Assembly: GCA_964619725.1 (NCBI GenBank)
Contig: CAZUFC010000126.1
Span: forward strand, 1 to 23,423
Source of the DNA: an uncultured bacterium
Lineage (GTDB): Bacteria; CSSED10-310; CAZUFC01
Direction: 5' to 3'
Length of the DNA stretch: 23,423 nt
Numbering within the stretch: position 1 is the stretch's first letter; each line of letters begins with the position of its first letter. Under the pieces are notes generated by a model. That model was not told where the DNA came from. It did not search any database and saw only the letters and a list, made by a program, of their open reading frames with translations. Positions 1-22,844 of this stretch are shown here, piece by piece. The position numbers and the translations under genes are program-made.

Positions 1-45
1 AGCATTAAATTTTGAATCGACAATCGAGTTTATGGACAGGCACTA
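1..45. repeat. Short dispersed repeat with terminal inverted repeats, left copy (truncated at window start)
   Basis: Bases 1-41 match 23383-23423 at 39/41 positions. TGGACAGGCACT (33-44) is the inverted repeat of AGTGACTGTCCA (23372-23383) at 11/12. Confidence 0.9.
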
Positions 46-96
46 ATTAAGAAGCTTTGAAAATATGATCAGACCGACACATATCTCCAGGTAATT

Positions 97-206
97 ATTT
101 TGTTGCGATACCGACCCCGAAACAAACGGCCCTTGATGAATATAACGGGTGATTTCAATCATTTAAGCGCTTCATGAAAAAATGTAATCCCCGTTTGATC
201 AGTCCC
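97..206 (-). repeat. Partial copy of the GGGACTGATCAAA MITE-like repeat family
   Basis: The reverse complement of 183-206 (GGGACTGATCAAACGGGGATTACA) closely matches 10476-10499 and 18770-18793. The reverse complement of 97-120 matches 18835-18858 at 21/24. Confidence 0.75.
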
Positions 207-431: not shown

Positions 432-521
432 TTAACGATTTCTCCTTATGGAACAACCCGTAAGAGCAGCTCCGAGCATCAGGATCAAAGCGACGATACC
501 GGCGGCGCTGAAAGTTGGAAT
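432..521 (-). other. IPTL-CTERM-like protein sorting signal ([29 protein letters not shown])
   Basis: IPT[L/F] motif, transmembrane helix and basic tail at the extreme C-terminus after a Pro/Thr linker, which is the IPTL-CTERM architecture. Confidence 0.85.
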
Positions 522-3500
522 AGGCATGGGAGTCGGAACGACGGTATTGGTTGGGGTAGGTGAAATAGGGGTAGAAGTGGGTGAATATGTTGGGACAGGC
601 GTCATGGTGGCGGTGGGAGAGAGTGTTGGAGTAGAGGAGAGCGTCGGGGTAGCGGACAGCGTGGGAGTAGGCGAAACGGTAGGAGTAGAGCTGAGCGTAG
701 GAGAAGGCGTAACCGTGGGAGTAGGAGTTACGGTAGGCGTAATGAGTTCGAAATCCTGATTGGTCAGAATATTGCTTTCCACTTCGAGGCCATAGAGAGT
801 TTGCGGAACATAACCGGTCGCTCCGGCCGTCACGTCGTAGGAGCCGTTGGGAATGCGGTGTATTTCGTAGTACCCGTTGGAATCGCTGCCGTCCGGATCG
901 GAATAACCGCCGCCGGCCGTCACGGAAGCGCCCTGAATAGGATTGAGGGAGCCGGCTTCCCTGACGAAACCGGTGATGCCTCCGCCGACGTGGAAAGTCC
1001 AGTTCCAGCCGGGTTCGTCGTAGATTATTCCTTCGTAATCGTTCGCATCATGAGTTTCAACGGTCAATTGAATATCCGGAGCGCCGGCGGGAATCTGCCA
1101 GTACCAGGAATGGAACCCGTCTTCATTGTGATCAAGCGTGACTTCCCAATCTTCTCCGGCGGCATGACTGTCGTATTCCGCCGTACCCGTATCGCCGTCA
1201 GTATCGATTTTCAAGGTATAAACCAGATCGAAAGCGTAAAAAGGATGCGGGTTCTCGCCTCTTACTCTGATTTGAGCCGTTTCGCCCGGATAGAACACGT
1301 TCGTCTCCTGATCGCTCATGTTCAGTATGGTGACTGTTTGAACTCTGGGATCGACGTCGAATGTATAACCTTCGCAGACATGCGGCAATTCGGGCGCAGC
1401 CTGGTCGGCCTGTTCCTGGCTTTCCGCGCAGACGAATATGCTGGAATCGGCCAGCGTCAAAACCGCGAGCGAATTTGTACTGACGACGTAATGACCGCCG
1501 TTGAAATGCTGCGTCGTGATCGAGAATGTGTTGGTGGCCGAACCGCCCGGATTGATGTTCAAATATCCGGGATCGAATGAGAATCCATATGTGCCGCTCG
1601 GTATGATGTCGTCCAGTTCAGCGATCAGATGTCCGTTGATGAAAAGGTCTATGTAGTGCGGCCTTACGTTGGACCGCGGCTGAAACGTGGTGTAAATGAC
1701 AGCGGTTTCCACGCCTTCTATCGCTCCCACATTAACGTCGAATTGCATCGAAATGGAAGGCCGGTTGGTGCAGAACCAGTTGGCCATGGGGTAACACAGT
1801 TCCGTTCCGGCAACTGTAACCTCCCATAACTGCCTGGGCGCTTCGCAATTGAATTCAAGCGGCAGAGAGACCTCTTCCCCGGCTGCAGCAGCCATAATTT
1901 CTCCTGAAAGAGAAGGTTGGCCTTCTTCAAACAGCGGTTCAACTTCAAAATCAATATGTTCGCTGGATTGCAGCAGGTAGTGATCGATTCTGGGAATGAA
2001 GAGCACATGCCCGAGCAAATCAGCGCCTGCCGACACAGAAAGGTCGGTGAGCGGATCGCCGGAATTGCTGACGCGGCATGATTTTACTTCAGTAACCGGG
2101 TCTTCGGATTCCTCGGTCAGCGAAAACGCGACATAAGGCCAGGTCACGCAAACCGTCGTAGGCGCCGTATCGGTAATCGGATCGCCCGTTTCATCAGCGA
2201 CAAGCGATATGACCAGATCATCGAAACAGACTTCGACCTTGCCCTCCCCGTCATTTTGAACGACATCCTGCGCATGTATCACCAGTTCGATATCCCTGGT
2301 TTCTCCCGCTGCCAGCGCTACCGTTTCATCTTCGCTTCCGGGACCCACGAAGTTGACTATAAGCGATTCATGAGGATTCTCAATATGCAGTTCAACCGTA
2401 TGGCTGACAGTATCTTCGTTGTGCACGCCGACCCAGACATGCTGATCGTAGTCGCGTTCCACCGTGAATGAGTAGCTCTCTTGAGTGAAAACTACCCCGT
2501 TGCCGACAGTGAAGGTCCAGACAGGTGATGTGTAATCGCCGCAGAGCGATTCGGCTCGGATGTACCATTCGTAAGTTACGTTGCGTGTAAGTTGATCCAG
2601 TTCGATCATGTGGACCGTTTCAGCGGTCGCCACAGGCAGTTCTATGTATCCAGCCGCTCCAGATTCGCGGTAAAACAGGCTCGTATCTGAAGTCACTGAA
2701 GTATTCCAGCTCAACGTAACCTCGTTGCTGCCGGTAGTCGTTCCATTGACCGGATTCCTCTGGGTTATTTCCACGCTGCCGGTAACTTCCAGAGTTGCTG
2801 AATCGACATAGGGTTCGCTCAATTGCAGGGATGTCGCTGTCACGTCGAAAGCATAGGACCCAACGGCGGAACATTCATCCGGCACAGTCACGCTTATCGT
2901 CGCTTCGCCGGTTTCTCCTGCATTAAGGACCAGCGGATTCGGCGAAAGATCATACCAGGCGCCGGAAAGCGATCCGGAAAGGTTCAGAGCGAACGTATCC
3001 GGACCCAGGTTCCCGTTGTGCACTTGAACCGTAAAGTCTGTTTCGGTTCCTACCGCCGTTTCTTTATGTTCCGGTTCGACGTTTAATGAAATAGCTCCGG
3101 GGCAATACACTATCGGCGCATTGCGCAGAGCCGTGTTGTTCATTTCATTCGATTCCATAACTTCGTCGGCGACATCGGCCTCAACCGAAATGACCGTATC
3201 GCATGCCGCAGTCCAGGCGATTGAAACCGTGACGGAACCGTCAGGATTTAAAGGTCCGCCGGCCTGATCCGTGCCGATCTGCAAAGGTCCCGACCCGTCG
3301 TCCGCATAAAACCTCACGGAAAATGTCCCGGAAGAGGCATTGCCGAAATTATGAACGGTCGCCTCAATCGTCGTCGCTTCATTCTCTTCCGGATAAGAAG
3401 GAATGAAGGAAATGTCCTGGCTGCGTACGGCCAGGTCAGGCGCCGGCGTCGGTGAACTCGTGACCGTGGGCGTCGGCGTTTTCGTGCCGATCTGAGTCGG

Positions 3501-6500
3501 CGTCGGCGTCGACGTAGAGATCGGACTGGGCGTTCTTGTCGGCGTCAGAGTCGCGGTCGGCGATAATGTGACTGTCGGCGTTAGAGTGGCAGTTTCCGTG
3601 GGCGTCTGTGTCGATGTTTGCGTGGGGGTCAGTGTGCCTCCATAAGTCGTCGCAACGACTTCTTCACCCTCTACTGAATAAGATGGCAGTACAGCGTCAT
3701 ACGCGAATATGCGATAATAAAAGGTTTCGTTTGGAGTGAGGCCGGTGTCGGTCCAGGGAGAGGTTGAATGATCGTCAGCGCCTTTGTATACGATTTCCAC
3801 TCCGGGGGAAACTTCTGAACCGGTTGCCGCATGATAATGCTGTCTTTCTGATGGTCTCCAAGTGATGCCGGCGTCGGATCGAGCGATGATAACGCCCGCG
3901 AAATCATTGACGGGCGGATTATTCCAGGTCAGACTGACCGATGTCGCTGACGTTGCATCTACAGAAAATTCCATCGTATCCGGCGGTGCGCTTTTCGCTG
4001 ACTGATTGTTGGGATAATAGTATACGCCGTTGTTTCCGCCATAAAGAATATCCTTCTTTCCGTCGTCGTTCCAGTCGCAGATATCTACTTCATAACGCAC
4101 TTCAAGATTGCCGTAGGAGCCGGGAATATAACCCTCATCAATCAAGACGGGAGAGCCCGGAACGCCATGATTTCGGTAATTCTTCAGATAATCCCATCCT
4201 GGCCCTGAAATAACTAAGAAATCGGGGTCGCCGTCTTCTTCGTAATCCCAGATGTGAGGGCACTCCCAACCATTGGATGGAATAGGAGATTCATATCCCG
4301 GCCATCCGTAATGCAACATAGTCGGCACAAAGTGGAAGTCCGGGTCTGCGTCTGTGCCCTGGTTCAAATAAACATATTGATGATGATAAGCATTGACGAA
4401 AAGGTCCTTCTTGCCGTCGGAATTCCAGTCAGCAGTCTCAATGGGACGCGAGCGCCTGGGTCCCAGATCGTAATAACCTGCTGTCAGCTTCTGCGGTTCG
4501 GCGAATACCGGATCGTAGTTTTCTCCGATATTGAGGAACAGATATATATCCCCTCTGTCGTCATAATCCGGATTCGTTACAAGCAGGTCCTTCTTCCCGT
4601 CATTGTCCCAATCCACAATTTCCGGACTCAGGTAACTCCAATACTCAAAACCGATCCAGCGGCCCGATTCCGTCGTCAAAACGAGCTGTTTCGTCATTTT
4701 TTCATCCCCAGCCTCGCCAGAGTTGAATATCACATAATGCTTGCCGTTCCAGCCGCAGTTCAAAAGAAGGTCCTGACGGCCGTTTTCATCCCAATCAACG
4801 ATTCGTGGAACTTTGCTGATGTTGAAAATGCTTGTTTCCTCGTTGCCGGGAACATAATGCCCCTCTTTATAGACCCGTTCCGCATTTGTGCCTTTATTGG
4901 GATAATAGACGATGTTATCCATCCGCGTCGAAGTAATCAGGTCTTCATTTGCGTCCCCGTCGATGTCTCTGAATTCATAATGATTATCCCACTCCATAAC
5001 GACCACGCCGTAGGAATCGTAAAGCAATGTTTCCTCAGAGAAGGATGGATTTGCATCACTGCCCACATTCTCGAAAAGGACCAGACGAGTAGAATTTTGA
5101 TTTCCTTTTACCAGAAGGTCCTTCTTGCCGTCTACATCCCAGTCGGTCACCCAGGGTTCAGCCTGATATCCCATATCTATTTCTGAATAGCCGACATGAA
5201 TGGCTGTGCCTTCAGCTAGCTCCGGATCGGTTTGCGAACCCGAATTGATGAACAGATGTACCCTTCCGTCATTCGCTCCCACGACAAGATCGTCTTTGCC
5301 GTCATTATTCCAGTCTACGGGAAAAGGATCGGCTTCATGGCCCACGTCAAGCATTCCATATCCTGCTTCAAGGTTTACGCCTGACAGGAACGCAGGATTA
5401 GTATCAGAGCCATGATTTTCATAGTAGATGACCCCTCCATCACCCTTACCGACAAGTAAATCCCTGTTTCCATCGGCATTCCAATCAAAATGCAACGGTA
5501 CGGAGGCAGTTCCAGCATCGATGTAACCGTAAACGTTTTGCAGACGTGAACAATCCTGCAGTTTAGGCTCCTGCGACGTTCCGATATTCATGCAAAGCCA
5601 GATATATCCTAGCCAGTCGCCGGACAATACATCAAGCTTCCCGTCGTTATCCCAGTCAGTCATGCTGAATTTATAATTGTTCCCCGTTCCGCTTGAATCA
5701 ATTATAAATGCGTCACGTTTAATTTCAATTTTTTCATCGAACTCAGGAGGTCCCGCCGGCCCGGGAGTGGGAGTATCCGTCGGCAGAGGGGTATCGCTCG
5801 GCAGAGGACTGGGCGTCGGCGTCGGGGTGTCTCCTGAAGCCAGAGTATTCACTTCGACGCCATCAGTCGAGTAAGAGGGAAGCACGGCGTCATAGGCGAA
5901 GGCCCGGTAATGGTAAACGTGTCCGGGCATCAGACCGGCATCGGTCCAGGGTGTCGTCGAGTGATCGTCATCACCCTTGTAAACGATCTCCAGGCCGGGC
6001 GAAACCTCAGCCCCGGTTCCCGCGTGATAATGCTGCGCATCAGAAGGCCGCCATACAATCGGAGACAGTGAACGCACGATAATAACGCCCGCGAAATCGT
6101 TCACTGCGGGATTCGTCCAGGTTAAACTCGCCGTCGTCTCTGAGGCCCCGGCGACGCTGAATGAACCCACTTCCGGCGGCGCGGTCATTCCGGCCTGTTG
6201 GTTGGGGTAGAGCAGTACGCCTATGTCCTGTCCGATTATCAGGTCCTTTCTGCCGTCTTCATCCCAATCCGCCACATCCGCAAAAGCTACGCTTTCGCCG
6301 TCAACATAACCGTATGCGGACATGAGATATCCGGCGTCTACCAGTTGCGGATTCCCGATAGACCCCTCGTTGTTGTACATGTGAAGCCTGTCTCGGCGCT
6401 GATTCGTTACCATGATGACGTCAGGGTCCGCATCTTCTTCGTAATCCCACACTCTCACCGTGCAATAAGGCGAACCGGGCAGATAATTCCCGTATCCGGC

Positions 6501-9500
6501 TCCATACCTCAGCAGACTTCCCGATGAAAAAGCCGGCGCTGCATCCGTGCCCTCATTTAAAAAGACATACTGGTAGGTGCCGTAAGTACCCCAGTGATCG
6601 GTCCCCAACAGCAGGTCTTTTTTACCGTCGGAATTCCAGTCGATCGTCTCTATGCCTTTTGTCGACTTGGGTCCTATATCCGCATAGCCGTCCGTCAGTT
6701 TATAAGGAGAACCGAATTCTGGATCGTAATTCTCTCCGGAGTTAAGATAAATATACACGTCGCCGTTCTGACTATAATCCCTGTGGGGCGCCAGTATATC
6801 CTTTTTGCCGTCATTATCCCAGTCAATCACTTCAGGCGTCATATACTCGAACCAGCCGCCTTCAAAACCTACAAGCTCTCCGGTCGTCGTCGTCAGCCTG
6901 CGCTGTCGCGTCAGTTTGTGCTCGGCTGTCGTTCCCGTATTGAACACCACATAATGACTGCCGTTTCTGCTTGTATTGAAAAATATATCCTTTAATCCAT
7001 CCTCATCCCAGTCCACAACGCGAGGAATCTTCGCATACCTGAACATCATAGTCGGTTCATCCCCGGGAACATAAAAAGCTTCATCGTAAATACGAGCGGC
7101 ATTAGTCCCTTTGTTGGGATAATACATCACCGCGCCGATATCATTGGCTATCGCCAGGTCCTCCCTGCCGTCGCCGTTCCAGTCCGCGAACGCCCATACA
7201 TCCTCTTCATTCAAGGGAATGGCGCTGTTTCCTCCGAAAAGATGCGTCTGATCCTCAAATACCGGAGCGCTGTCTGTTCCCACATTCTCAAACCACCATA
7301 ATTTAGACTCATTATTGCCGCCGGAAACCAGCAGGTCCTTCTTGCCGTCTCCGTTCCAGTCCGTTACCCAGGGCTTGGCGTTACTGCCTATGTCCAGTCC
7401 TGTGCCGTTCACCTGGACAAGGGCGCCGGAGTCCAACTGAGGGGATGATGAGCTGCCGACGTTCAAATACAAGTGAACTTTGCCGTCGCCGGCTCCAACC
7501 AGCAGATCATTTTTGCCGTTGTTGTTCCAGTCTGTCACGAAAGGATTGGAATTGTAGCCGACATCCAGCGTTCCGTAGCCTGCAGAGAGATTGGAACCGG
7601 AATTAAAGGAGGGTGAACCGTCGGTCCCGTAATTTTGATAATAAACCACCCGGCCGTCCGAATTGCCTATAAGAAGGTCTCTTTTTGCGTCTCCATTCCA
7701 GTCGGTATGTACGGGCGCTGAAGACCACCAGCCTACGTCCAGGTCGCTGTAGTTCGCCTGCAGAAGATACGCATCGTCCAGCTTCGGCTCGCTTGCCGTA
7801 CCGCTGTTCATGCATACCCAAACGCGACCGTCGTGATGACCCGAAATAAGGTCCTTCAAACCGTCGTTATCCCAATCCGTCACCCAGGGCGACCAGCCGT
7901 TCTGTCCTGATATGCGATAAGCCTCACGCTTTATTTCCAGCGGCTCACCGAATTCAGGCGGTCCGGCAGGCCCGGGAGTCGGCGTATCAGTCGGTAAAGG
8001 CGTATCGGTCGCTGTAGGACTGGGACCGGGCGTCGGCGTATCGCCCGACGTCAATGTATCAACCTGGACCCCGTTTACTGAATAAGAGGGTAAAACAAGA
8101 TCATACGTGAAAATGCGATAGTAATAATGATGACCAGGCGTAAGTCCCGTATCGGTCCAGGGGGTCGAGGAATGATCGTCCGAACCCTTGTAAACCACTT
8201 CTATGCCCGGAGAAACTTCTACTCCCGGCACGACATGATAATGCTGCCTGTCCGACGGCTTCCACTCAATGGAAGACTCCGAACGCACTATGACGACTCC
8301 CGCAAAATCATCGTCCGAAGGATTCTGCCACGTCAATCCCACACTGTAATCCGATACCGTGTCCACGCTGAAAACACTCGCCTCGCCCGAAGACGTCATA
8401 TTCGTCTGGCTGTTGGGATGAAAGAATATTCCTGCCCGGCGGACACTCAGTATATCCTTTTTCCCGTCTTCGTCCCAGTCCACGACCTCCAGCTCGGAAT
8501 CCCAGCTCGCACCTATGTAGCCGTAACCTGCTTCCACTCGTCCCGCTTCCTCCAGGTGCGGCGTTCCGGGAACGCCGGTATTGACGTAGTGCGTGTAATA
8601 ATCGGAATCATCATCGGTTCTTATTATTATGTCTATGTCTCCGTCTTCTTCATAATCCCAGGCGTGAGTCTTCCCTTCATACGGTCCCAGTATGGGTTCC
8701 GCATACCCCGACGAGTATTCCATGATTACGTTTCCGGAATCGAACGAAGGATTCGCGTCCGTCCCATTGTTTACATAAACGTGGTGATAATATCCGTTGC
8801 TGCTGTGTCTTTCCCGGGCGCCCAGAAGCAAATCCTTCTTGCCGTCCGCATTCCAGTCCGCTATCTCAATCGCCCTAACTCCCTCAGGACCCAGATCGCC
8901 GTATCCCGCAGTCAGCTTCTGCCCATCCGCAAACTCAGGCAAATAATTTTCATTGACGTTAAGATACAAATAAATGTCGCCCGCATCATTGGAGTGGTCA
9001 TTGGGAATAAGGATATCCTTCTTGCCGTCGTTGTTCCAGTCGATTATCGCAAATGAGGAGTATCCCCAATGGGTTCCCAGATTCTCCCCGTTTGCCGTGC
9101 ACAAGGACAACTGCTTCTCAAATTTAGGCGTGGCCGAAGTTCCTGTATTAAAAACGACATAATGACGGTTGTAATAATTGTGAGGACTTACCACTAAATC
9201 CTTGTCTCCGTCTTCATCCCAATCGACCGTCCTCATCGATTTGTTGCTGTAAAATATCGCTCCGCCTTCATCGCCGGGAATATATACCGCTTCCTTAAAC
9301 TCCCGGGCAGCATTCGTTCCCTTGTTCGGATAATACATCGCATAGCCTTTGGCGCTTACCTTTACCACATCTTCCGCCCCGTCACCGTTGATGTCCGTAA
9401 AAGAAAACGTCCCCCGGAAACTGTTTACCGGCACAAATCCGTCTTCGTTAAAGATGACGGTTTCCGCCGTAAATGACGGCGAAGCATCCGTTCCCGTGTT

Positions 9501-10292
9501 TAAAAAGGCCGATACCCTGTCCGGAGATGTCCCGTAACAGAGAAGGTCCTTTTTGTCGTCGCCGTTCCAGTCCGTCACCCACGGTACGGAATTATTTCCC
9601 ATGTCTATTGTACCGTATCCGACTGTCAGAGCCGTCCCGGAGGACAACTGCGGCGAAGAATTCGTGCCGACATTTAAATATAAATAAATATGCCCGGAAG
9701 ACTCCCCTAAAAGCAAATCATCCTTTCCGTCATTGTTCCAGTCGACTATGAAAGGTACGGCATCGTAACCCACGTCCAAAGCGCTGTAATTCGCCTGAAG
9801 ATCGGTTCCCGACGTAAATTGAGGACTCCCGGATGAGCCCGTGTTTTTGTAAAATTTTACATTTCCCGAACCGGTTCCGACCAGCAAGTCCTTTAAGCCG
9901 TCTGCATCCCAATCCCACATGAATGGGGCTGATTCATAACCCACGTCCAAATCGGAATACCCGACCTGAACAGCCGTTGAGTCCTGAAAAGCAGGCTCCG
10001 TCTCCGTTCCATTGTTTATGTTCAACAAAACATGGCCTTCCCAGTAACCCGACAACAAATCATATTTGCCGTCATCATTCCAGTCGCTTGTGCAGATTGA
10101 TACAGGATTGTCGCCATACACCCGTATGCATTCACGCTTTATTTCAATCTCTTCACCCAGTTCAGGAGGACCCGCTCTGTCGCGGTCGCCGGTCCTGCCT
10201 GCCAATGCCGCCTTCTCTTCTCCAAAAACCGCAGGAATTAAGGTTATAATCAGCGCCGATAATATAAAAATTCTCAGTAATTTTGTCGTCAT
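432..10292 (-). CDS. Giant cell-surface protein (3286 aa): signal peptide, 3 x [10 FG-GAP/VCBS-like repeats + FN3 + Pro/Thr linker], CARDB, Ig/FN3-like domains, carboxypeptidase regulatory-like domain, Pro/Thr stalk, IPTL-CTERM-like signal
   Basis: Uninterrupted 9.86-kb ORF with an N-terminal basic+hydrophobic signal. It has 30 DWxxDGxxDLL-type motifs, FN3 motifs (LTWxNP...WTDTGL.P...YYYRIF), a CARDB start ([12 protein letters not shown]), [21 protein letters not shown]...[12 protein letters not shown], and ends IPTF-TM-RRNR. Confidence 0.95.
3640..10175 (-). repeat. Three tandem intragenic modules with a period of ~2210 bp (~737 aa)
   Basis: AGPPE(L/F)xExxEIKR recurs at ~10175, ~7967 and ~5756. 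Each module ends in a near-identical FN3 segment (HYH...EVSPG.E.VYKG.DDHS..PWTD.GL.P). Confidence 0.95.
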
Positions 10293-12059: not shown

Positions 12060-12878
12060 ATGACGGATGATGAATTAGTCTCTTTTCTGCGATGGAGCCT
12101 CCCTCGTATGGGGCGCCGCTATGCCGGCGTCAGAAAAGTACGGCGACAAATTCGCAAACGTTTGAGCCGCCGAATGAGTCAGCTCGGTCTCGAATCGCTT
12201 GCCGAATATGAACGCCTTCTGCAACGGAATGAAAAGGAATGGGCGCTGCTGGACTACATGTGCCGGATTACCATTTCACGTTTCTATCGTGATAAAAAAA
12301 TATTCCAGACCATCAAAAACTCAATCCTTCCCTCACTCGCCGCCGGAAAAAGAAATCAATCCGAAGTAAAATGCTGGAGCGCCGGCGGATGCTCAGGTGA
12401 AGAACCTTATACCCTGCAGATTTTATGGCAAAAATGCGTCGTTCCTCGCTTCGATGAATGCCCTGATTTAATGATAACTGTGACGGAAATCGATCCTCTG
12501 CTGATTAAACGGGCAGAACAAGGCTTCTATCCGCCAGGCGCTCTCCGTGATTTTCCCGTGGAGTTGTTCGAGGATGCCTTTATCTTCCTGGACGGGAATT
12601 ACCAGTTGAAAGAAGAATTCAAACAAAATGTACGGTTCTTCCGTCAGGATATCAGAAAAGAAATGCCGGAAGGACAATTCGATATTATTTTATGCAGGAA
12701 TCTGGTCTTTACTTACTTCGAACCCGCAATGCAAAACGAAATTCTCGTGAAATTAACCTCAAAAATGCTGCCCGAAGGATATCTGATAATTGGTATCCAT
12801 GAATCCCTGCCGGATAGGTCGCATTTCCTGGAGCCTGTCGATAATCAAAGGGTAATTTTTCAAATTCACATCTCCTGA
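12060..12878 (+). CDS. cheR: CheR-family SAM-dependent protein-glutamate O-methyltransferase (stand-alone)
   Basis: TISRFYRD, WSAGGCSGEEPYTL, FDIILCRNLVFTYF and GYLIIGIHESL match CheR motifs. Starts 30 bp after the upstream gene, so probably co-transcribed. Confidence 0.9.
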   Translation: MTDDELVSFLRWSLPRMGRRYAGVRKVRRQIRKRLSRRMSQLGLESLAEYERLLQRNEKEWALLDYMCRITISRFYRDKKIFQTIKNSILPSLAAGKRNQSEVKCWSAGGCSGEEPYTLQILWQKCVVPRFDECPDLMITVTEIDPLLIKRAEQGFYPPGALRDFPVELFEDAFIFLDGNYQLKEEFKQNVRFFRQDIRKEMPEGQFDIILCRNLVFTYFEPAMQNEILVKLTSKMLPEGYLIIGIHESLPDRSHFLEPVDNQRVIFQIHIS

Positions 12879-13079: not shown

Positions 13080-15284
13080 TTATTCCACGGGTAATATAGT
13101 CAGATAATACGTTGACGAGGGTGACGGATAGCCTGTCGGATAATATGTGGGAATGGAGGTCGGATAAGCGGTCGGATAAGGAGTTGCTGTGGCGGTGTAA
13201 GTCGGGGGATATGTGGGATAGGAGGTTGGATAGGACGTGGGGACTGAAGTGGGATAATCCGTTGGGTAAGGAGTGGCCGTAGCGGTGTAAGTCGGCATGC
13301 TGGTGGGCGTCGTTGTTGAAGTGTGCGTGGGAGGATAAGTCGGATACTCAGTCGGAACGACAGTGGGATAATCCGTGGGATATGGGGTTGCAGTGGCCGT
13401 ATATGTGGGTGGAGAGGTTGGGTAGACAGTAGGAACCATTGTGGGAACGACAGTGGGATATTCGGTCGGCGCGACAGTTGGGTAATCAGTCGGCGCCATC
13501 GTAGGATAGTCAGTCGGCACAAGCGTCAGTTCTTCAGTGGGCGAGGGCGAAGGGGAGGGCGTTGAGGTCATCGTAGGCGTATTAGTCGGAGTTGGCGTCC
13601 GTGTTGGCGTTCGTGTCGGAGTGCGAGTCGGTGTTAATGTGGGGCATGGGTCCAAACAGCTTCCCTGTCCTTTTCCTGAGCTGCCGATGCCTGTGACGCT
13701 GATATCGAATTCCAGGTCTTCGGGACTCCACGTAATGCTTATTGATCCTATAGGCGTACGCCAGGCCCAACCGTAATAGAGTTTGCAATAACTGGAAATT
13801 GTTTCTTCCCGGCATTCGATCTGCGCATCGCCCAGGCACATCCAGGCGGTGCAGTCGGAGGAGCATATCGGCGGAGGATAGTCTTCACATGTCATTTCCC
13901 AATCGATTTCTCCGCTGATGCCGCCCCATATCCATAAAATGTCGTGCCCGCCGGAGCAAGTCTTGCTCTTCGGTTCGAATACCATTATGTTGGACAACAT
14001 TGAATCGAATTCAGGTTCATAATCATTACAGACGCAGATCGTAGTGAATACTTCTTTCTTATCTGCGCCTTCCCAGTAAATTTCGATCTTGTGCTGTCCG
14101 ACTTGAACAATGCCGTCGACCAGAGCGGTCCATTCGGCCAGCATTGCAGGATCGGCGCCTTCAAGCAAGACGGGAGCAACCGATGCCGGTTCCAACGGAT
14201 TTCCGGATACCGTATATGTTATGGAAGGGTCAGTCATCTCCGCCACAGCAGCCTCTCTTTCGGGTTCATTCGCTATGACGCTGAGTTCCGTCCATTCTGT
14301 TATAAGGACATTCGAGCCGAAAGTGGAATTCCAGTTTGCGACGGCCTCATTCAATGCATCGACATAATCCCTGTAAAAGAAATAATAAGGATTCTCCTGA
14401 GCGTCTTCTTCCTCGGCGGACCTTACGGCTTCTGCTTTCTGATGTAAATATGTTGTGGTAAAACCAGGGTTCTCAACGCTGATGTAATACTCTACCAGGT
14501 CCCCGTCCACGGCTCCCGGATACCAGGGTGAAGCGCCGTCGCAATCAGTCCACCAGTAATCGTTATCCCCGTCGTTGCATTTCCAGGTCAGATCATGCGT
14601 CTGCCATTGTCCCTCATTTATCCTGTAATGCAATGTGCAGGCGCTCGCTCCGCCGATGGGGTAAACGCCGCAATAAATGCATACAGGGTCGGCGGTCTCC
14701 TGGGGATAAAGCGCTTCCCGCATCGTCGCATCATAACCGCATGCTTCAGCCGAATCGGGAATATGCCAGGCGTTTACTGTCGGATAAGGCAAAGGCGTCG
14801 GCGATGAAAGAGGATATAATACAATGTCCTCAACAGTATTCTCGCCGGATGCTATCGTCACATTTTCCAACGATTCCGAAGAGTATCCCGATGCGCTCGC
14901 ATACACCCGGTATAAACCTTCATCAACGCCGTTTATTTCCCATTCTCCCAGAGGATTAGTCGTCGTTCCGTATTTATTCACCGCAAAAGCGAAACAAAAA
15001 ACACAGAAAATCATAAGAACGGCCGTTATCACGCTTGTCGACTTTTTCCCCCTCCTGACAAAACTGAGCGTTAATATACCGGATAAAAGGAATATCGACA
15101 ATATTCCGATTGCAGGCACCGCATCAAGCTTGGTCAGAGTTATAGATATGCCCGAATGATCCGTTTCGCCCGCCTTGTAAGCATGGCCCGCCGCATCTGC
15201 TGCGAAACAAGGCGAGAAAAAACCAGACAGAAAAAGCGCCAAACCAACCATGCAAGCCGTCAAGATGCTTTTCGATCCCTTCAT
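13080..15284 (-). CDS. Exported surface protein (734 aa): signal peptide, carboxypeptidase-regulatory-like domain interrupted by a 2-TM insert, Ig-like domain, Cys-rich domain, Pro/Thr linker and Tyr-Pro-Thr repeat tail
   Basis: AGGAGGAG RBS. Signal peptide ending CFA (aa 28). VPAIG-TM-RRGKK-TM-AFA at aa 56-101. TTTNPLGEWEINGVDEGLYRVYASASGY follows. C-terminal (PTxY)n repeats. Confidence 0.92.
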   Translation of the reverse strand: MKGSKSILTACMVGLALFLSGFFSPCFAADAAGHAYKAGETDHSGISITLTKLDAVPAIGILSIFLLSGILTLSFVRRGKKSTSVITAVLMIFCVFCFAFAVNKYGTTTNPLGEWEINGVDEGLYRVYASASGYSSESLENVTIASGENTVEDIVLYPLSSPTPLPYPTVNAWHIPDSAEACGYDATMREALYPQETADPVCIYCGVYPIGGASACTLHYRINEGQWQTHDLTWKCNDGDNDYWWTDCDGASPWYPGAVDGDLVEYYISVENPGFTTTYLHQKAEAVRSAEEEDAQENPYYFFYRDYVDALNEAVANWNSTFGSNVLITEWTELSVIANEPEREAAVAEMTDPSITYTVSGNPLEPASVAPVLLEGADPAMLAEWTALVDGIVQVGQHKIEIYWEGADKKEVFTTICVCNDYEPEFDSMLSNIMVFEPKSKTCSGGHDILWIWGGISGEIDWEMTCEDYPPPICSSDCTAWMCLGDAQIECREETISSYCKLYYGWAWRTPIGSISITWSPEDLEFDISVTGIGSSGKGQGSCLDPCPTLTPTRTPTRTPTRTPTPTNTPTMTSTPSPSPSPTEELTLVPTDYPTMAPTDYPTVAPTEYPTVVPTMVPTVYPTSPPTYTATATPYPTDYPTVVPTEYPTYPPTHTSTTTPTSMPTYTATATPYPTDYPTSVPTSYPTSYPTYPPTYTATATPYPTAYPTSIPTYYPTGYPSPSSTYYLTILPVE
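13083..13520 (-). repeat. Tyr/Pro/Thr low-complexity coding repeat (PTxY units; PTYTATATPYPT x3)
   Basis: About 146 C-terminal residues containing 23 Tyr (manual count), with degenerate 12-bp periodicity in the DNA. Confidence 0.9.
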
Positions 15285-15402
15285 TATACTCCTCCTTTTT
15301 TCCTCCGCTACAAAATGAAAATGGAATAATGGCCAGATGGTGAACGTTATAAATATAAACCTCAGAAGCCCTTACAGTCAAGTTTATTTCGCCGTGTGCA
15401 GA

Positions 15403-15646: not shown

Positions 15647-17599
15647 ATGCTTTCGATGACGTTTTTTTTCCGTCGAAATGCCATAAGCGAAAGGCGCTGT
15701 GTGACGAAATTAATATCAAATATTCTGTTCATGATTCCCGCATCTGATGATTCGGAATGTTTTTTTGATCATTTAGGAGTCGGATACCTTTCTGCATCGC
15801 TTCAGGAGCTGTATTTTGAATCGGTCATCGTCAATATGCCTATTCATGATATGAAAAACTTCCAGGCGGCGAAACTCATATGCAGGATGAATCCGGATGC
15901 CGTAGGCATGACCCTTCTGGACGAATCGACGCCTTCTGCGCTGGAATTGACGGCAATGATTCGAAACAAGGGATATAGTGGGCTGGTTATCCTGGGAGGT
16001 TACGGAGCGACGGGACAGATGAAGCTGATACTGAGTCAGAATCCGGGCGTTGACGTGATTGTATACGGCGAGGGAGAAAAGACGTTCCAGGAGCTGATCA
16101 AAAAGATGAAGACTGGGAGTGATTGGAGGGGCACTCATGGAATAGCTTTCAAAGTTGACTCAGGTATACAAGTAAATCCTCCCAGGCCTTTGATCGCAAA
16201 CCTGGATGAGATTCCTTTTCCCGTCAGGCCCAATGCCGAGAGAACCATACTGGAAAGGCTGCAGGCGACGATTCTGGGAACACGGGGCTGCTTCGCTGAT
16301 TGTTCTTTTTGCGCGATCAGAAATTTCTACGGACTCTCGCCAGGCAGAAAAAGGCGATCCCGCAGCATCGAAAACATAGCAGAAGAAATAGACTGGCTGG
16401 CAGGTCGTTATCCTGATATAGCCGAAATCAGTTTTGTCGACGATTCCTTTCTGCCTCCCGGTTCGCAGGGATTGGAACGTGCCTATGAATTCGCCCGAAT
16501 ATTATCCCGTCTCCGGAATAATATTTCTTTGACGATATCCATCCGAGCGTCCCAGGTTGATCGACGGATCATTCGGATGCTCAAACGCGTGGGATTGAAG
16601 TCGGTATTCCTGGGAGTCGAATCGATCAATGAACGTGCTTTGAAACTGCTAAATAAAAATCAGTCCCCCGATGATGCTTATAAAGCCCTGGCCGTGCTGG
16701 ATGAAGAACAAATCGTCAGCGGAATCGGATACATCGGTTTCGATCCTTTTACAACGCCGGATGAGCTGAAAAGATCGGCAGAGTTTTATCTGCAGCGGCT
16801 TAGTAAGGGCTCAAAAGTCGTAACCATTTCCAATTATCTCCGTCTTTTCTCAAATATTCCCCTTCTGGAAGAATTCAAGCAAAAAGGAGTTCTGATCAGG
16901 GAGGATTATTCCTTTGGTTTCAGATTCATCGATCATAAGACAGATTTTATTTTTAAGTGCCTGCAGACGTTAGCGAAAAATTATACGGATAATATCAGCA
17001 TACGTACGAAGCAGGGCGCACTGAATATGCAGGTGATGCGAACTCAGATCGGAAAACGACGCTACAGCATAATCATCGGACAGATCAATCAATCTTTTTT
17101 ACGTATTATAGAAGCCGAGGTCAGGTTATTGTTAGGACTTATAGAACTGATAAAAAGGGATGATATAAACCGGAAGAAACTGACGGAGCTGGTCATTCAG
17201 TTTGAAAAGCAAGTACAAGTATCAGATAACTTCCTGAAAATGCTGGAACAGGAACTGATAGGCAAGAAAGGGAAAAAACGAATAAAAACTTTCTGCGGCA
17301 AATGGAATGGCTCTTGTTTTATTTATGATATGCTCAATGACGAGTTTCATGAAACGGACGAACTGACCCGACGGATAGTCGACAAAATGAACTACAGGTC
17401 CTGGGAGGAGATAGAATCAGGATTGTCTTCTTCAGCAGAAGCGAATAAAGCGCGTCTGATCCGTAAACAAGTCATGAAAAAATTCGCAAAAGATTTACCT
17501 GAACCTCCGTCTTCGCCTCTTTATCCCGGCAGCGCCGAGAAAACGGTCGAAGCCATGTTCGGTTTTGCAGAAACAGCGATGGATGGTTATTCAGATTAA
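15647..17599 (+). CDS. Cobalamin (B12)-binding radical SAM protein with putative C-terminal RRE/PqqD-like domain; true start may be GTG 15701
   Basis: N-terminal B12-binding-domain motifs (HLGVGYLSASL, VILGGYGAT, DVIVYGEGE, NLDEIPFP). TRGCFADCSFC supplies CxxxCxxC at aa 215-222, followed by FVDDSF and VFLGVES. AAGG lies 6 nt before GTG 15701. Confidence 0.93.
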   Translation: MLSMTFFFRRNAISERRCVTKLISNILFMIPASDDSECFFDHLGVGYLSASLQELYFESVIVNMPIHDMKNFQAAKLICRMNPDAVGMTLLDESTPSALELTAMIRNKGYSGLVILGGYGATGQMKLILSQNPGVDVIVYGEGEKTFQELIKKMKTGSDWRGTHGIAFKVDSGIQVNPPRPLIANLDEIPFPVRPNAERTILERLQATILGTRGCFADCSFCAIRNFYGLSPGRKRRSRSIENIAEEIDWLAGRYPDIAEISFVDDSFLPPGSQGLERAYEFARILSRLRNNISLTISIRASQVDRRIIRMLKRVGLKSVFLGVESINERALKLLNKNQSPDDAYKALAVLDEEQIVSGIGYIGFDPFTTPDELKRSAEFYLQRLSKGSKVVTISNYLRLFSNIPLLEEFKQKGVLIREDYSFGFRFIDHKTDFIFKCLQTLAKNYTDNISIRTKQGALNMQVMRTQIGKRRYSIIIGQINQSFLRIIEAEVRLLLGLIELIKRDDINRKKLTELVIQFEKQVQVSDNFLKMLEQELIGKKGKKRIKTFCGKWNGSCFIYDMLNDEFHETDELTRRIVDKMNYRSWEEIESGLSSSAEANKARLIRKQVMKKFAKDLPEPPSSPLYPGSAEKTVEAMFGFAETAMDGYSD

Positions 17600-19712: not shown

Positions 19713-22700
19713 TCAGTAATCCAGAAGCGTGTCCGCATTAAAAATCAAACAGGGATAATGGAATCCCATATCCGCGATTCCTAAGTCCATGACCTGGTTT
19801 GAACTCGTGGTTAAATCATTCAGACAAGTTAATGCGGTATCCGATTCCCAGCAGATGTTTTCCGACATTCTGTCCCCGCTGTCGATGCATGGACTGTTGA
19901 TCACCTGTCCCGCACTTTGACGGCTCAGGTAATAATCGCCGCAGGGACCCGGAACGAAACGGGGGTCTAAACTGATGTTTGCTTCGCCTTTCCAGCCGCC
20001 CTGGACATCTGAGTATTCAACGGTAAGGACGGAATATCCCTGATCGATCGATTCGGGATAGTTGTCCCAGATGATGGAGTTAACGATAAGTCCGGCTCCG
20101 CCTGTATATAGAACTGCTCCCCCGGTTCCGTCTACAGCGTCGTTTTCAGCGAACAGACAGTTTACTAAAACCGGAAAGAACCCGCCCAACATTATTCCGC
20201 CGCCGTTCCCCGCATTATTATGTAAAAAAGCGCAGTTGGTCATTTCAGCATCCCATGACTGGCTGAAAACTCCTCCGCCTTTTGAGAACGCAGAATTATC
20301 TCTGAAAATGCAATTCAAAATTCGAGTATCATGCGACGAGTCCCATACATAGAGTCCTCCGCCGTCGTCTACGGCAGAATTGAATGAAGCCGCAGAATTC
20401 ACTATCTTTACTTCCCCGTTTCTGGAATATATACCGCCGCCTTTACCGGAAGCATGATTGTTTTCAAGCATCGTATTTTTAATTGCGACATCACAGGAAT
20501 TCAGGTATATCCCGCCGCCGTTGTCAGCGCTCTCGTTGTCTCTGATTAGGCTGCAGCTCAGATTCAAGCGCCCGCCGCAGCTCCTGACTGCCCCGCCTGA
20601 GCCGTCATACGCCGTGTTGTTTTCCATTATGCACTCAGTTAAAGAAATTTCGGATGACCGGGAGTGAATACCTCCACCTTCCTCTGCCACGCCGTTTTTC
20701 AGTGTTAATCCGAATAATTCTGCCTCTTGTGAATTATGGCCGATGAAAATTTGAGCTGTTCCGCCGGCATCCAGGTCGGTGCGACGGGGACCCCGGCCCT
20801 GAATACGGACATGACTGATCAACGGTAACGGGAAATATTCACCGGTCGTTTCGTAAGAATATACGCCCGTAGCCATATTTATCGTTACCGGCGCAGACGC
20901 GCTTCCGTAGACCTGGCTCAAGGCGCGCCTTATCGTTTTAAAGGGTGTTTCCCAGGACAATCCGTCATTCGTGTCGTCTCCGTTTTCAGCCACATAAACA
21001 TCCTGAGTGATCGGCGTCAATCGTGAAATTCCCCCTGTCAAATCAAAAAATACTTGCGGCGCCACATAATAGTCCGAATGCATATAACCCTCAAAAATGT
21101 TGTAAGTTGCGTTTATTCCCGAATTATGAGAACAGATATCGGCTCCAAAACCTGCCGAGTTCTCACGGTAATAACCGGTTTTTTCCGGCGATCCGCCGAT
21201 TACCGGGTCTGTTAATTCGGTACACATGACCGCTCCTCCGAACAGTCGCGCCCGATTGCCTGAAAAAATGCCGTTATATATGCGCGCATCCGCCCGGTCA
21301 GCCAGATAGATGGCTCCTCCGCTGCCCGCCATGCACCTGTTGTCCTGAAATATGCAATAACTGACCAGCGGCTCGTTGTTTCCCCCCAGATACAATGCCC
21401 CGCCGTTGCTTGTCGCTTCATTGCCCAGGAAAAAACTATCCGTTATCTCAGAATTAACGCTCGAATCAATATAAATGGCTGCGCCTTCATATCCCCTGTT
21501 ATAGATAAATGTGCAGTTTTCAATTTCCTGACGGCAATCCAAAGAATAAACAGCGCTTCCTTCATTGTTGTAAAACCGGCACCGGGATATAGTAATCGGC
21601 GAACGGTACAGATGCATTCCGCCTCCATGCCCTTCTGAACTGCCGTTTCTTATCGTCAAATCGGAAAAAGTCAACACCTCATCCCAGACGCCGTGAAATA
21701 CCCGGTCTGTTCCTTCCGCATCAATGACCGTCATATCAGTTTCTCGACCTGAAAGGCAGACTCGCTTCACTAAAGGCAATGGAAAACTCTCTCCCGTCGC
21801 CGACGGTGAATATATTCCCTCATCCAGATGTACGTTCGCCGGATGATAATATGTCGAGTGCACGCGGCTGAGCGCATGCCTGATCGTCTGAAAAGCCGTT
21901 TCCCAGCTCAATCCGTCATTATCGTCGTCTCCTGCCGGCGATACGTATACGTCCTGTATGACAGGCGTCATCAGAGACTCGCATTCGGCAAGATCGAACG
22001 AATTCCAGGATGTCACATAGTAATCGGAACAGTGCAAACCCGCAAAAGTATTGTATCTTGCATCAACCCGGGAAATGCTTGTACTGAAAAGGTCTGCTCC
22101 CGATGCGGCGATATTTCCCTCAAAATAGTTCCCTTCATCAGGAAAACCGCCGATGATGTTGTTCCATGCTTTTTCAACATATATTCCGCCGCCTTCATAG
22201 CGGGCCCTGTTTCCCGTTATCTCGCAATTCCTGACATACATATAACGGCAAAATATCGCTATGCCGCCGCCGTACGTGGCGCTGTTGTCCGCAATCGTGC
22301 AATCCCTGACCAATGCCGCTGCCGGCACGTCATTTTTTCCGTAAATGCCGCCGCCCCAATTCGCACTGTTGTCCGCTATCGTGCAGGAATATAAATCAGG
22401 AAATCCGCCCTGAAAATATATGCCGCCGCCCTTCTCAGCCGTTCCCTCCCTCAAGACGCACTCGCGTATCTCAGGCGATGAATCCTCACAGTAAATCGCT
22501 CCGCCCGCTGCATGCCGGATCGTGAATCCCTGAACCACTGAATCGTTCGTCTCGCCGCTCCTGAATACTATCCCGCGCCCCAGTCCCTGACATTCAATCT
22601 CACAACTGCTTGCACCTGATGCCGACTGAAGCGTTACGGCTTTACCCATGAAATCTATCTCACGGTTCTCCTCGCCCACATAAACGCCCTCCGATACCAA

Positions 22701-22844
22701 TACGGTGTCGCCGTCCTGCGCAGCTTCAATGCCGGATTGTATCGTGGGAACCTCTGACGGCACATGCCACACTTCACCGTAACTTATGGCCGGAACTATC
22801 GCCAAAAATATCCAGACTGCTGAAAAATTCGTTAACCATTTCAC
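19713..22844 (-). CDS. Secreted right-handed parallel beta-helix (pectin-lyase-like / Pmp-repeat) protein with two DUF1565-like caps (1043 aa)
   Basis: AAGGAGGAG RBS before a GTG start and a signal peptide. VPSEVPTIQSGIEAAQDGDTVLV at the N-terminus, many GGGI/GGAI + FxxNxA repeats, two DVYV..GDD.NDGLSWET.F.TI motifs, and a C-terminal DMGFHYP. Confidence 0.93.
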   Translation of the reverse strand: MKWLTNFSAVWIFLAIVPAISYGEVWHVPSEVPTIQSGIEAAQDGDTVLVSEGVYVGEENREIDFMGKAVTLQSASGASSCEIECQGLGRGIVFRSGETNDSVVQGFTIRHAAGGAIYCEDSSPEIRECVLREGTAEKGGGIYFQGGFPDLYSCTIADNSANWGGGIYGKNDVPAAALVRDCTIADNSATYGGGIAIFCRYMYVRNCEITGNRARYEGGGIYVEKAWNNIIGGFPDEGNYFEGNIAASGADLFSTSISRVDARYNTFAGLHCSDYYVTSWNSFDLAECESLMTPVIQDVYVSPAGDDDNDGLSWETAFQTIRHALSRVHSTYYHPANVHLDEGIYSPSATGESFPLPLVKRVCLSGRETDMTVIDAEGTDRVFHGVWDEVLTFSDLTIRNGSSEGHGGGMHLYRSPITISRCRFYNNEGSAVYSLDCRQEIENCTFIYNRGYEGAAIYIDSSVNSEITDSFFLGNEATSNGGALYLGGNNEPLVSYCIFQDNRCMAGSGGAIYLADRADARIYNGIFSGNRARLFGGAVMCTELTDPVIGGSPEKTGYYRENSAGFGADICSHNSGINATYNIFEGYMHSDYYVAPQVFFDLTGGISRLTPITQDVYVAENGDDTNDGLSWETPFKTIRRALSQVYGSASAPVTINMATGVYSYETTGEYFPLPLISHVRIQGRGPRRTDLDAGGTAQIFIGHNSQEAELFGLTLKNGVAEEGGGIHSRSSEISLTECIMENNTAYDGSGGAVRSCGGRLNLSCSLIRDNESADNGGGIYLNSCDVAIKNTMLENNHASGKGGGIYSRNGEVKIVNSAASFNSAVDDGGGLYVWDSSHDTRILNCIFRDNSAFSKGGGVFSQSWDAEMTNCAFLHNNAGNGGGIMLGGFFPVLVNCLFAENDAVDGTGGAVLYTGGAGLIVNSIIWDNYPESIDQGYSVLTVEYSDVQGGWKGEANISLDPRFVPGPCGDYYLSRQSAGQVINSPCIDSGDRMSENICWESDTALTCLNDLTTSSNQVMDLGIADMGFHYPCLIFNADTLLDY

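Follow-up and report, generated by a model that had tools for sequence, protein, structure and literature searches.

A putative sorting signal and second signal peptide inside a predicted split beta-sandwich: a candidate N-terminal anchoring module in candidate division CSSED10-310

Background

What would a sorting signal of the C-terminal type be doing near the N-terminus of a large protein, directly ahead of a segment that resembles a second signal peptide? The question is raised by an open reading frame (ORF) of 734 amino acids (aa) on the minus strand (13080-15284) of the stretch of DNA analysed here, the window, which comprises 23,423 nucleotides (nt) from an uncultured bacterium (Bacteria; CSSED10-310; CAZUFC01; assembly GCA_964619725.1, contig CAZUFC010000126.1, positions 1-23,423 of the forward strand). 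We propose that the gene product resides at the surface or in the periplasm and that its first ~165 residues form a conserved 'midcut' anchoring module, in which a helical hairpin would be cut out of a split beta-sandwich domain; for this whole chain of processing our rough probability is 0.4.

Exosortases and archaeosortases are widespread, and a C-terminal signal is what defines a protein as their substrate. To our knowledge, the chemistry and the acceptors of the bacterial enzymes are still unknown. The signal considered here occupies aa 56-81 of 734 and has about 650 residues behind it. The module would be a compact substrate: its product would have 29 residues, and mass spectrometry could reveal how that product is modified. 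The module also suggests how such enzymes may hold a protein by its N-terminal end, namely through a two-strand peptide that completes the first domain of the passenger.

Anatomy and proposed processing of the module

The frame of the 734-aa ORF is open and has a good ribosome-binding site. Its translation agrees residue by residue with the order of segments that a first-pass annotation of this DNA had described for aa 1-158: a signal peptide, 27 residues, VPAIG running into a hydrophobic helix and then RRGKK, another hydrophobic helix with AFA at its end, and a segment ending in DIVL (Table 1). The tripartite layout of a sorting signal is present behind signal peptide 1, with VPAIG followed by 18 hydrophobic residues (helix 1) and then RRGKK. 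The topology predicted from these segments is self-consistent: the first strands lie outside, helix 1 runs from out to in, the basic loop is inside, helix 2 runs from in to out, and the remainder of the protein is outside.

In the processing that we propose, signal peptide 1 would start Sec export and be removed after A28, and strands A and B (aa 29-52) would emerge outside the inner membrane. Helix 1 (VPAIG...RRGKK) would stop the transfer with its basic cluster in the cytoplasm, as in the C-terminal sorting signals of the host, and helix 2 would re-initiate export of the remaining protein. Outside, strands A and B would pair with aa 102-158 to give one transthyretin-like sandwich, which the hairpin of the two helices would leave at the B-C loop. 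The single XrtH/ArtB-like exosortase of the host would cut at the VPA motif and hand the ~29-residue N-terminal peptide to its acceptor; signal peptidase I would cut after AFA(101), and the hairpin would be discarded. The 630-residue passenger would then be held to the anchored peptide by strand complementation alone, and the result would be N-terminal anchoring by an enzyme that attaches only what lies N-terminal to its site. What the analysis shows is the anatomy, how well it is conserved, the predicted co-folding of the flanks and the occurrence of the enzymes in the genome; both cuts, the acceptor and the retention of the passenger are steps that we infer from conservation. If true, this non-covalent arrangement would be a new mode of N-terminal anchoring by a sorting enzyme of the C-terminal type.

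Conservation and spread of the module

An exhaustive HMMER search with aa 1-560 of the 734-aa protein gave 362 proteins at E<=0.001, of which 150 were listed; these 150 and the query make up the 151 proteins examined here. The module was found at the N-terminus of 27 of them. Apart from the query, these are the 26 listed matches that align through their own N-termini to query residues ~13-175, whereas the others (124 non-module proteins) match the passenger only. When loci from 14 species genomes of the phylum were added and duplicates were removed, 47 non-redundant proteins headed by the ~165-aa module were obtained. The module occurs in 11 of the 14 species genomes at E<=1e-10, in one to six copies each, and the three genomes in which it was not detected are 60, 86 and 92% complete. 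The genome to which the window belongs (G000; 9.17 Mb in 344 contigs, with ORFs called in six frames) has four copies.

The source names of the relatives read 'candidate division CSSED10-310'. A locus search with a five-row alignment returned five loci, all in metagenome-assembled genomes of this candidate division, although its patterns are narrow and absence elsewhere is not implied. A word-index search with the module alignment returned one protein only, the host genome's own paralogue, and no further members.

The alignment of the 27 N-termini starts with a signal peptide ending ..A-ATVDGHAYKDGQTDHSGITI.LE.LP.VPA.G, a helix and RKRNR, and continues with a helix ending GL.C..YA and then ..YTT.TN..GEY.F.DVEPG.YRLDASAPGYYPE....I.DG.N...DITLYP, behind which stands a Pro/Thr linker. 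The domains carried behind the module vary: FGE-sulfatase was found in 10 of the 27 proteins, and LTD, PKD, Calx-beta, NHL, Laminin_G_3, WD40 and others in one each. Conservation is highest in strands A-B (2.70 bits per column), followed by the rest of the sandwich (2.21), helix 1 (1.94), helix 2 (1.68) and signal peptide 1 (1.37, the lowest). Highest conservation in strands A-B is the pattern expected if a short peptide must bind tightly on its own.

The module is real and conserved, a statement about which we have almost no doubt. Could the architecture instead be an artefact, produced by chimeric assembly, by the recent fusion of two genes or by decay into a pseudogene? The one observation in that direction is a module paralogue on another contig of the host genome, C226, which has an in-frame TAG within the module. 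Since independent assemblies yielded 47 non-redundant sequences of the same architecture, since 11 of the 14 species genomes have it, and since the frame in the window is open behind a good ribosome-binding site, we regard an artefact as ruled out for practical purposes. Note that in the C226 paralogue (C226:1528-2010, L009) the TAG stands in place of the second Tyr of GYYPE (GGT TAT TAG CCG) and the frame runs on for about 980 further codons; the codon may be a nonsense mutation, a sequencing error or a site of read-through, and one match in another genome (G011, contig C102) also has one TAG.

A predicted sandwich split by the hairpin

The family PF13620 (CarboxypepD_reg; curated cut-off 32.3 bits) matches aa 104-156 with positions 29-81 of its 82-position hidden Markov model (HMM), at 35.9 bits when the whole protein is scanned and at 38.5 bits with the 158-aa piece. 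The match begins at HMM position 29, meaning that the first 28 positions are missing there. In six further module members PF13620 likewise begins at HMM position 28-30 in every case. A full copy of the same domain (HMM positions 2-81) is carried by the 3286-aa protein encoded in the window at 432-10292 on the minus strand.

A model of the module by AlphaFold 2 (AF2), with a mean predicted local distance difference test score (pLDDT) of 87 and a predicted template modelling score (pTM) of 0.71, supplies strands on both sides of the hairpin. Its elements are two strands (aa 29-37 and 47-52), two helices (61-76 and 81-99) and six strands between 104 and 156; pLDDT is 98 for the blocks covering aa 31-50 and 96-98 for the strands of aa 104-156. 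The two helices project from the sandwich as a hairpin at the B-C loop. Among 1000 re-aligned PDB chains, the best match was the 81-residue transthyretin-like domain of human carboxypeptidase D (5aq0_A), 80 of whose 81 residues align over model range 29..159 (Z 11.8, root-mean-square deviation (rmsd) 2.0). Only 58 residues lie between 102 and 159, and the N-terminal strands must therefore belong to the aligned 80-residue sandwich. A complete seven-strand sandwich is thus present in the predicted model. A look-up in the ESM Atlas gave best scores of 0.89, all to ordinary CarboxypepD_reg/PEGA clusters, mostly archaeal, and no lead on the hairpin.

When aa 29-58 and aa 102-170 were folded as separate chains, the score was 0.53 against 0.10 for the best control, a weak pass in a test that tends to favour the two halves of a single domain because of their likeness. 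The two-chain runs agreed in at least 95% of contacts, with a partner pLDDT of at least 73. In the calibration, 58 of 80 solved complexes and 2 of 110 mismatched pairs reached the mark; at scores <=0.60, only 7 of those 80 complexes did so, along with both mismatched pairs. Taken with the single-chain model, this prediction suggests that aa 29-52 and aa 102-159 are very probably one split transthyretin-like domain.

A putative sorting signal at helix 1

P57 is kept in 46 of the 47 sequences. This position is preceded by V/I/L/T in 45 and followed by A/T/S in 44, and the full motif [VILT]P[ATS] is present in 41. Comparable motifs are frequent at the ends of proteins of the host genome, where 138 ORFs (>=150 aa) have a P[AST]-helix-basic end and 117 of these carry I or V ahead of the Pro; the consensus of these tails is PTPPP[IV]PA..xG, and a looser regular expression finds 152 ORFs. 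The internal signal of the module resembles the ..P[IV]PA..G-helix-basic consensus of these tails. Together with the conserved Pro, this likeness suggests that helix 1 is probably cut by the exosortase.

Module and C-terminal signal appear to be mutually exclusive in the 151 proteins examined. A C-terminal sorting signal was found in none of the 27 module proteins and in 6 of the 124 non-module matches, although many of the compared proteins are shortened by contig ends and the comparison is only indicative. Those six include relatives of the passenger of the 734-aa protein (P0003, P0007 and P0010), one of which, P0007, matches the IPTL-CTERM family PF18203 at 26.2 bits, above the cut-off of 20.8. 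The 734-aa protein itself has no C-terminal helix-plus-basic tail, and the absence of a C-terminal anchor noted in the first-pass annotation therefore stands.

A scoring matrix derived from the 138 tails was applied to the internal windows of 6727 ORFs. Two module paralogues ranked 4th and 5th and the 734-aa protein 16th. Ranks 1-3 went to other ORFs that carry a full sorting signal and, directly behind it, an in-frame signal peptide with no stop between them, and the junction of sorting signal, basic cluster and signal peptide thus recurs in the host genome outside the module. Two of these ORFs are paralogous giants (C171:6391-15348, minus strand, and C203:97-9159, plus strand), and the third is C64:15893-18937 (plus strand), with its sorting signal at aa 290 of 1014; a large unrelated domain follows the signal peptide in all three. 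At the junction of C171 and C203, a Pro/Thr linker leads to PVPALSG-helix-KKQCR.KELL and then to M(M)K..-helix-AYA-QTDYY, and both ORFs run off their contig ends. The hairpins of these three ORFs join separate domains, whereas that of the module splits one domain. The three ORFs suggest a general 'cut here twice' cassette, which would yield two envelope proteins from one ORF.

Some 140-150 ORFs of the host genome with a P[IV]P[AST]..G-helix-basic end, many of them giants of 2000-6000 aa, stand against one exosortase-family gene. The signal of this genome mostly fails the curated IPTL-CTERM model and may be a distinct flavour.

A putative signal peptidase site at helix 2

Helix 2 follows the pattern of a signal peptidase I substrate, with RRGKK as n-region and 19 residues ending in A-F-A. 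The basic cluster and the conserved Ala are ~19 residues apart, a length in keeping with a signal peptide. Position -1 (A101) is Ala in 42 of the 47 sequences and small (A/G/S) in 46. Position -3 is A/V/T/S/G in 41 and falls within a wider permitted set (A/V/S/T/G/C/I/L) in 42; the rules for -1 and -3 hold together in 41, and -2 is mostly Tyr. Further upstream, 29 of the 47 sequences have Gly at -8 and 28 have Cys at -5. The host genome has three signal peptidase I genes. The first-pass annotation had read KK-hydrophobic-AxA as a signal peptidase I pattern and had made its proposal depend on homologues that keep the VP[AT] motif and the AxA site; the architecture is the same in all 47 sequences, and the counts above agree with it on both motifs. 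From these patterns, we consider cleavage of helix 2 by signal peptidase I somewhat better supported than not.

If helix 2 were not cut, the exosortase would still transfer the peptide, helix 2 would stay as a signal-anchor, and the passenger would be a type II protein of the inner membrane that is also clasped to the modified peptide. The sorting motif kept in 41 of 47 and the presence of an exosortase speak for this single cut, and the name 'midcut-by-XrtH' of the family NF033207 (see below) implies one cut. The (-3,-1) pattern, which 41 of the 47 sequences keep and in which 42 have Ala at -1, and the shortness of helix 2 with its Gly and Cys interruptions, argue instead for a second cut, and we consider a single exosortase cut unlikely.

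The exosortase and the cell envelope

The host genome has a single exosortase-family gene, which encodes a small, XrtH/ArtB-like protein of 190 aa. Its product passed only the general signature TIGR04178 (65.7 bits; cut-off 23). The end of this gene (L001:1453-2025, minus strand; region 13003-13575 of contig C134) is overlapped by a gene whose 214-aa product is a multi-helix membrane protein and matches no NCBIfam model (L001:837-1481, minus strand). A relative of the 214-aa protein was found by tblastn at 10 of 15 other exosortase loci fetched from the phylum, and this protein may be a conserved partner of the exosortase. BamA was detected in the host genome at 535.7 bits, indicating a diderm cell, and the hairpin would therefore sit in the inner membrane.

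The exosortase might also do more than release the peptide. Its acyl-enzyme (thioester) at VPA could be resolved by the alpha-amine of residue 102 freed by signal peptidase, in which case the hairpin would be spliced out and a continuous domain released. The predicted fold brings both ends together at the B-C loop. Exosortases and sortases have a Cys/Arg/His set in common, and transpeptidation by exosortase-type enzymes is suspected but unproven, as stated in the excerpted text of 10.1101/2023.06.07.544157. Our literature search found no such excision with re-ligation; a plain signal peptide would yield the same soluble product, which leaves the selective advantage of re-ligation unclear. We consider it very improbable. 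If true, it would amount to enzyme-catalysed protein splicing in the bacterial envelope, with the hairpin as a natural excisable membrane cassette.

Evidence against the proposed processing and the remaining alternatives

Several observations weigh against our proposal of two cuts with retention by strand complementation. On the side of the domain, aa 29-56 alone matched no Pfam family, and a profile comparison (hhalign) with the intact domain of the 3286-aa neighbour aligned only the C-terminal 65 columns. Sequence comparison thus does not tie aa 29-56 to the domain, and the split-domain assignment rests on structure prediction, in which the AF2 alignment had only 27 related rows and the complex prediction passed weakly. 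The idea of one split domain in the first-pass annotation therefore holds for the flanks as they co-fold in the AF2 model and does not hold at the level of sequence. On the side of the signal, the internal copy in the 734-aa protein scores 13.7 with the tail matrix, as compared with a median of 39.2 (minimum 1.3) for the tails, and has no Pro-rich lead-in. A loose regular expression for the signal is not rare, with 40 internal sites in 6727 ORFs that are mostly ordinary membrane proteins. PF18203 gave no match at E<=10 on aa 50-85 or in six other module proteins, and the label IPTL-CTERM given in the first-pass annotation has to be withdrawn; NF033207 likewise gave no match at E<=10 in the 734-aa protein. 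On the side of the enzyme, the scores of the exosortase for XrtH (TIGR04177; 76.6 bits) and archaeosortase B (78.2 bits) are below the curated cut-offs of 86 and 150. An exosortase-family gene is found in 14 of the 14 genomes of the phylum, which makes co-occurrence with the module uninformative within it. Finally, a diderm cell leaves open the route of a periplasmic complex to the surface.

Some of these points are shared by an explanation in which the chain is not cut again once signal peptide 1 has been removed, with a permanent inner-membrane hairpin in the B-C loop and an incidental or vestigial likeness to sorting and signal-peptide motifs. The positive-inside rule is satisfied and both flanks are outside, so that the domain would fold without any cut, and the low matrix score and the failure to match any curated sorting-signal model would also be as expected. 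A plain hairpin, however, needs neither P57 (46/47), nor a small residue at -1 (46/47), nor the conserved Gly at -8 and Cys at -5. The signal-peptide length of helix 2, the same junction between unrelated domains elsewhere in the genome and the mutual exclusion of module and C-terminal signal also argue against an uncleaved hairpin, which we consider rather unlikely.

It is also conceivable that signal peptidase cuts and the exosortase does not. Helix 1 would then be an unprocessed stop-transfer helix, and aa 29-101, comprising two strands and two helices, would be a membrane anchor to which the passenger is held by strand complementation. This would agree with the conserved (-3,-1) site, with the predicted co-folding of the flanks and with the weak score of the sorting motif in the 734-aa protein. 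It would leave unexplained why P57 is near-invariant, why [VILT]P[ATS]x[GST] matches the tails of the host genome and why module and C-terminal signal exclude each other, and we consider it quite improbable.

Comparison with known systems

The closest curated family is NF033207, 'midcut-by-XrtH protein', a subfamily-domain model of 175 positions with a cut-off of 45 bits. At E<=10, 17 of the 27 module sequences match it (best 1e-6), and the matches are collinear: aa 25-173 of P0064 align to positions 13-165, aa 33-139 of P0075 to 25-132, and aa 35-151 of P0051 to 23-139. All scores are below the cut-off, the best among 10 members scanned being 23.4 bits. The C-terminal sorting signal of the 3286-aa neighbour aligns to NF033207 positions 31-56 (E 0.04), suggesting that model and module agree in the relative position of a sorting signal. 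The length of the model equals that of the module, and both show a collinear architecture with a sorting-signal-like region in the middle of the protein. By its score and by XrtH co-occurrence, however, the module is not a member according to the curated criteria. A scan of the host genome with NF033207 gave four matches, all below the cut-off and none of them the module, and the 14 control genomes contain no bona fide member of NF033207 or XrtH. We take the module to be a distant relative or an analogue of this family, as far as the model name and the alignments allow.

The nearest experimental precedent that we found is HVO_0405 of Haloferax volcanii, whose central tripartite signal is cleaved in vivo in dependence on ArtA (archaeosortase A), a homologue of exosortases (PMC7157517, PMC9263693). 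Like the module, HVO_0405 has an exosortase/archaeosortase-type signal that is not at the C-terminus. Unlike the module, it is described as a strain-specific fusion of two genes; it is no conserved module, and the excerpted text of the two papers mentions neither a split domain nor a following signal peptide (PMC7157517, PMC9263693).

PEP-CTERM and IPTL-CTERM (PF18203) signals share with the module a motif that abuts a helix and is followed by a basic cluster. They stand at the extreme C-terminus, whereas the module signal is internal and does not match PF18203.

In donor-strand complementation, as in chaperone-usher systems and archaeal thread pili, and in the engineered split CnaB2 domain (SpyTag/SpyCatcher), an incomplete sandwich of the Ig-like or prealbumin-like type is completed by the strands of another chain. 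CnaB2 was in fact among the structural matches of the module model (8bdw_A, Z 10.0, rmsd 2.5, 86 residues aligned). The two chains of those systems are made separately, whereas both halves of the module would come from one precursor after excision of the hairpin. If our proposal is true, the module would be a natural counterpart of engineered split-domain tags and would explain the purpose of 'midcut' proteins. A stop-transfer helix followed by an internal signal peptide that is cut by signal peptidase is also known from flavivirus structural polyproteins, which differ from the module in being viral and eukaryotic and in having neither a sortase-type enzyme nor a split domain.

Our literature search found no paper on midcut, XrtH or IPTLxxWG proteins in this sense; IPTL-CTERM was mentioned in a single paper, on an S-layer protein. 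Nor did the search bring up an account of an arrangement that combines an exosortase signal, a second signal peptide and strand complementation. A mid-protein exosortase signal is thus already curated and has one experimental precedent, while a sorting signal with a second signal peptide inside a beta-sandwich was not found in print. The statement in the first-pass annotation that no such system had been described can be kept for the split-domain anatomy; it is limited by the collinear alignment with NF033207, below cut-off as it is, and by the cleavage of the central HVO_0405 signal by ArtA, as given in the excerpted papers.

Features of the window, passenger and neighbouring genes

The positions of the segments discussed above are collected in Table 1.

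Table 1. Segments of the 734-aa ORF and related features, in coordinates of the window
Feature	Position	Strand	Basis or remark
Shine-Dalgarno sequence AGGAGG, 6 nt 5' of ATG	15291..15296	-	read from sequence
Signal peptide 1, aa 1-28 (M1-A28), hydrophobic, ending CFA-A	15201..15284	-	translation; homologues mostly ..A-AT.. in alignment
aa 29-55, ADAAGHAYKAGETDHSGISITLTKLDA: predicted strands A and B of the split transthyretin-like (CarboxypepD_reg) sandwich	15120..15200	-	AF2 strands E29-37, E47-52
aa 56-81, VPAIGILSIFLLSGILTLSFVRRGKK: putative exosortase-type tripartite signal, VPAIG + helix 1 + RRGKK, predicted N-out/C-in	15042..15119	-	AF2 helix H61-76
aa 82-101, STSVITAVLMIFCVFCFAFA: helix 2, signal-peptide-like internal segment ending A-F-A, predicted N-in/C-out	14982..15041	-	AF2 helix H81-99
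aa 102-158, VNKYG...DIVLYP (VNKYGTTTNPLGEWEING...DIVLYP): remaining predicted strands of the sandwich	14811..14981	-	PF13620 on aa 104-156; AF2 strands 104-156
aa 159-560: passenger, no Pfam family at cut-off	13605..14810	-	profile searches
aa 561-734 + stop: Pro/Thr/Tyr-rich tail, no C-terminal helix or basic cluster	13080..13604	-	translation; PT repeat 20 bits
Putative C-terminal sorting signal of the 3286-aa neighbour, ..PIPTFSAAG-helix-RRNR	432..560	-	terminal form of the same signal; PF18203 13.9 bits, below cut-off

An internal translation start for the passenger was considered and dropped, no start-like position being conserved in the alignment. R77-R78-G79 are encoded by AGG AGG GGG (window 15048-15056), a Shine-Dalgarno-like sequence 18 nt before a GTG codon (V84); the relatives show no conserved start after AGG AGG, and an internal start therefore seems unlikely.

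Two units were recognized in the passenger, neither of which matched a Pfam family above cut-off (seen in proteins P0003, P0004, P0007 and P0009). The first, of ~145 aa (aa 160-305), carries the pattern 'NAWHIP..EAC' and is repeated four to eight times in relatives. The second, of ~250 aa (aa 305-560), is Cys-rich and stands alone in many proteins of ~280 aa, some of which end in IPTL-CTERM (P0007) or a dockerin (P0009).

The 3286-aa neighbour has three repeats of ~730 aa, each made of an FG-GAP propeller and an fn3-like unit, followed by CARDB, other Ig-like regions, the intact CarboxypepD_reg domain, a Pro/Thr linker and the C-terminal sorting signal (PIPTF-helix-RRNR). Elsewhere in the window, a Chlam_PMP/NosD beta-helix protein of 1043 aa without a C-terminal signal is encoded at 19713-22844 on the minus strand, and the ORFs at 15647-17599 and 12060-12878, both on the plus strand, encode a B12-binding radical SAM protein and a CheR methyltransferase. 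No obvious partner of the module gene is among these flanking genes (beta-helix, radical SAM, CheR).

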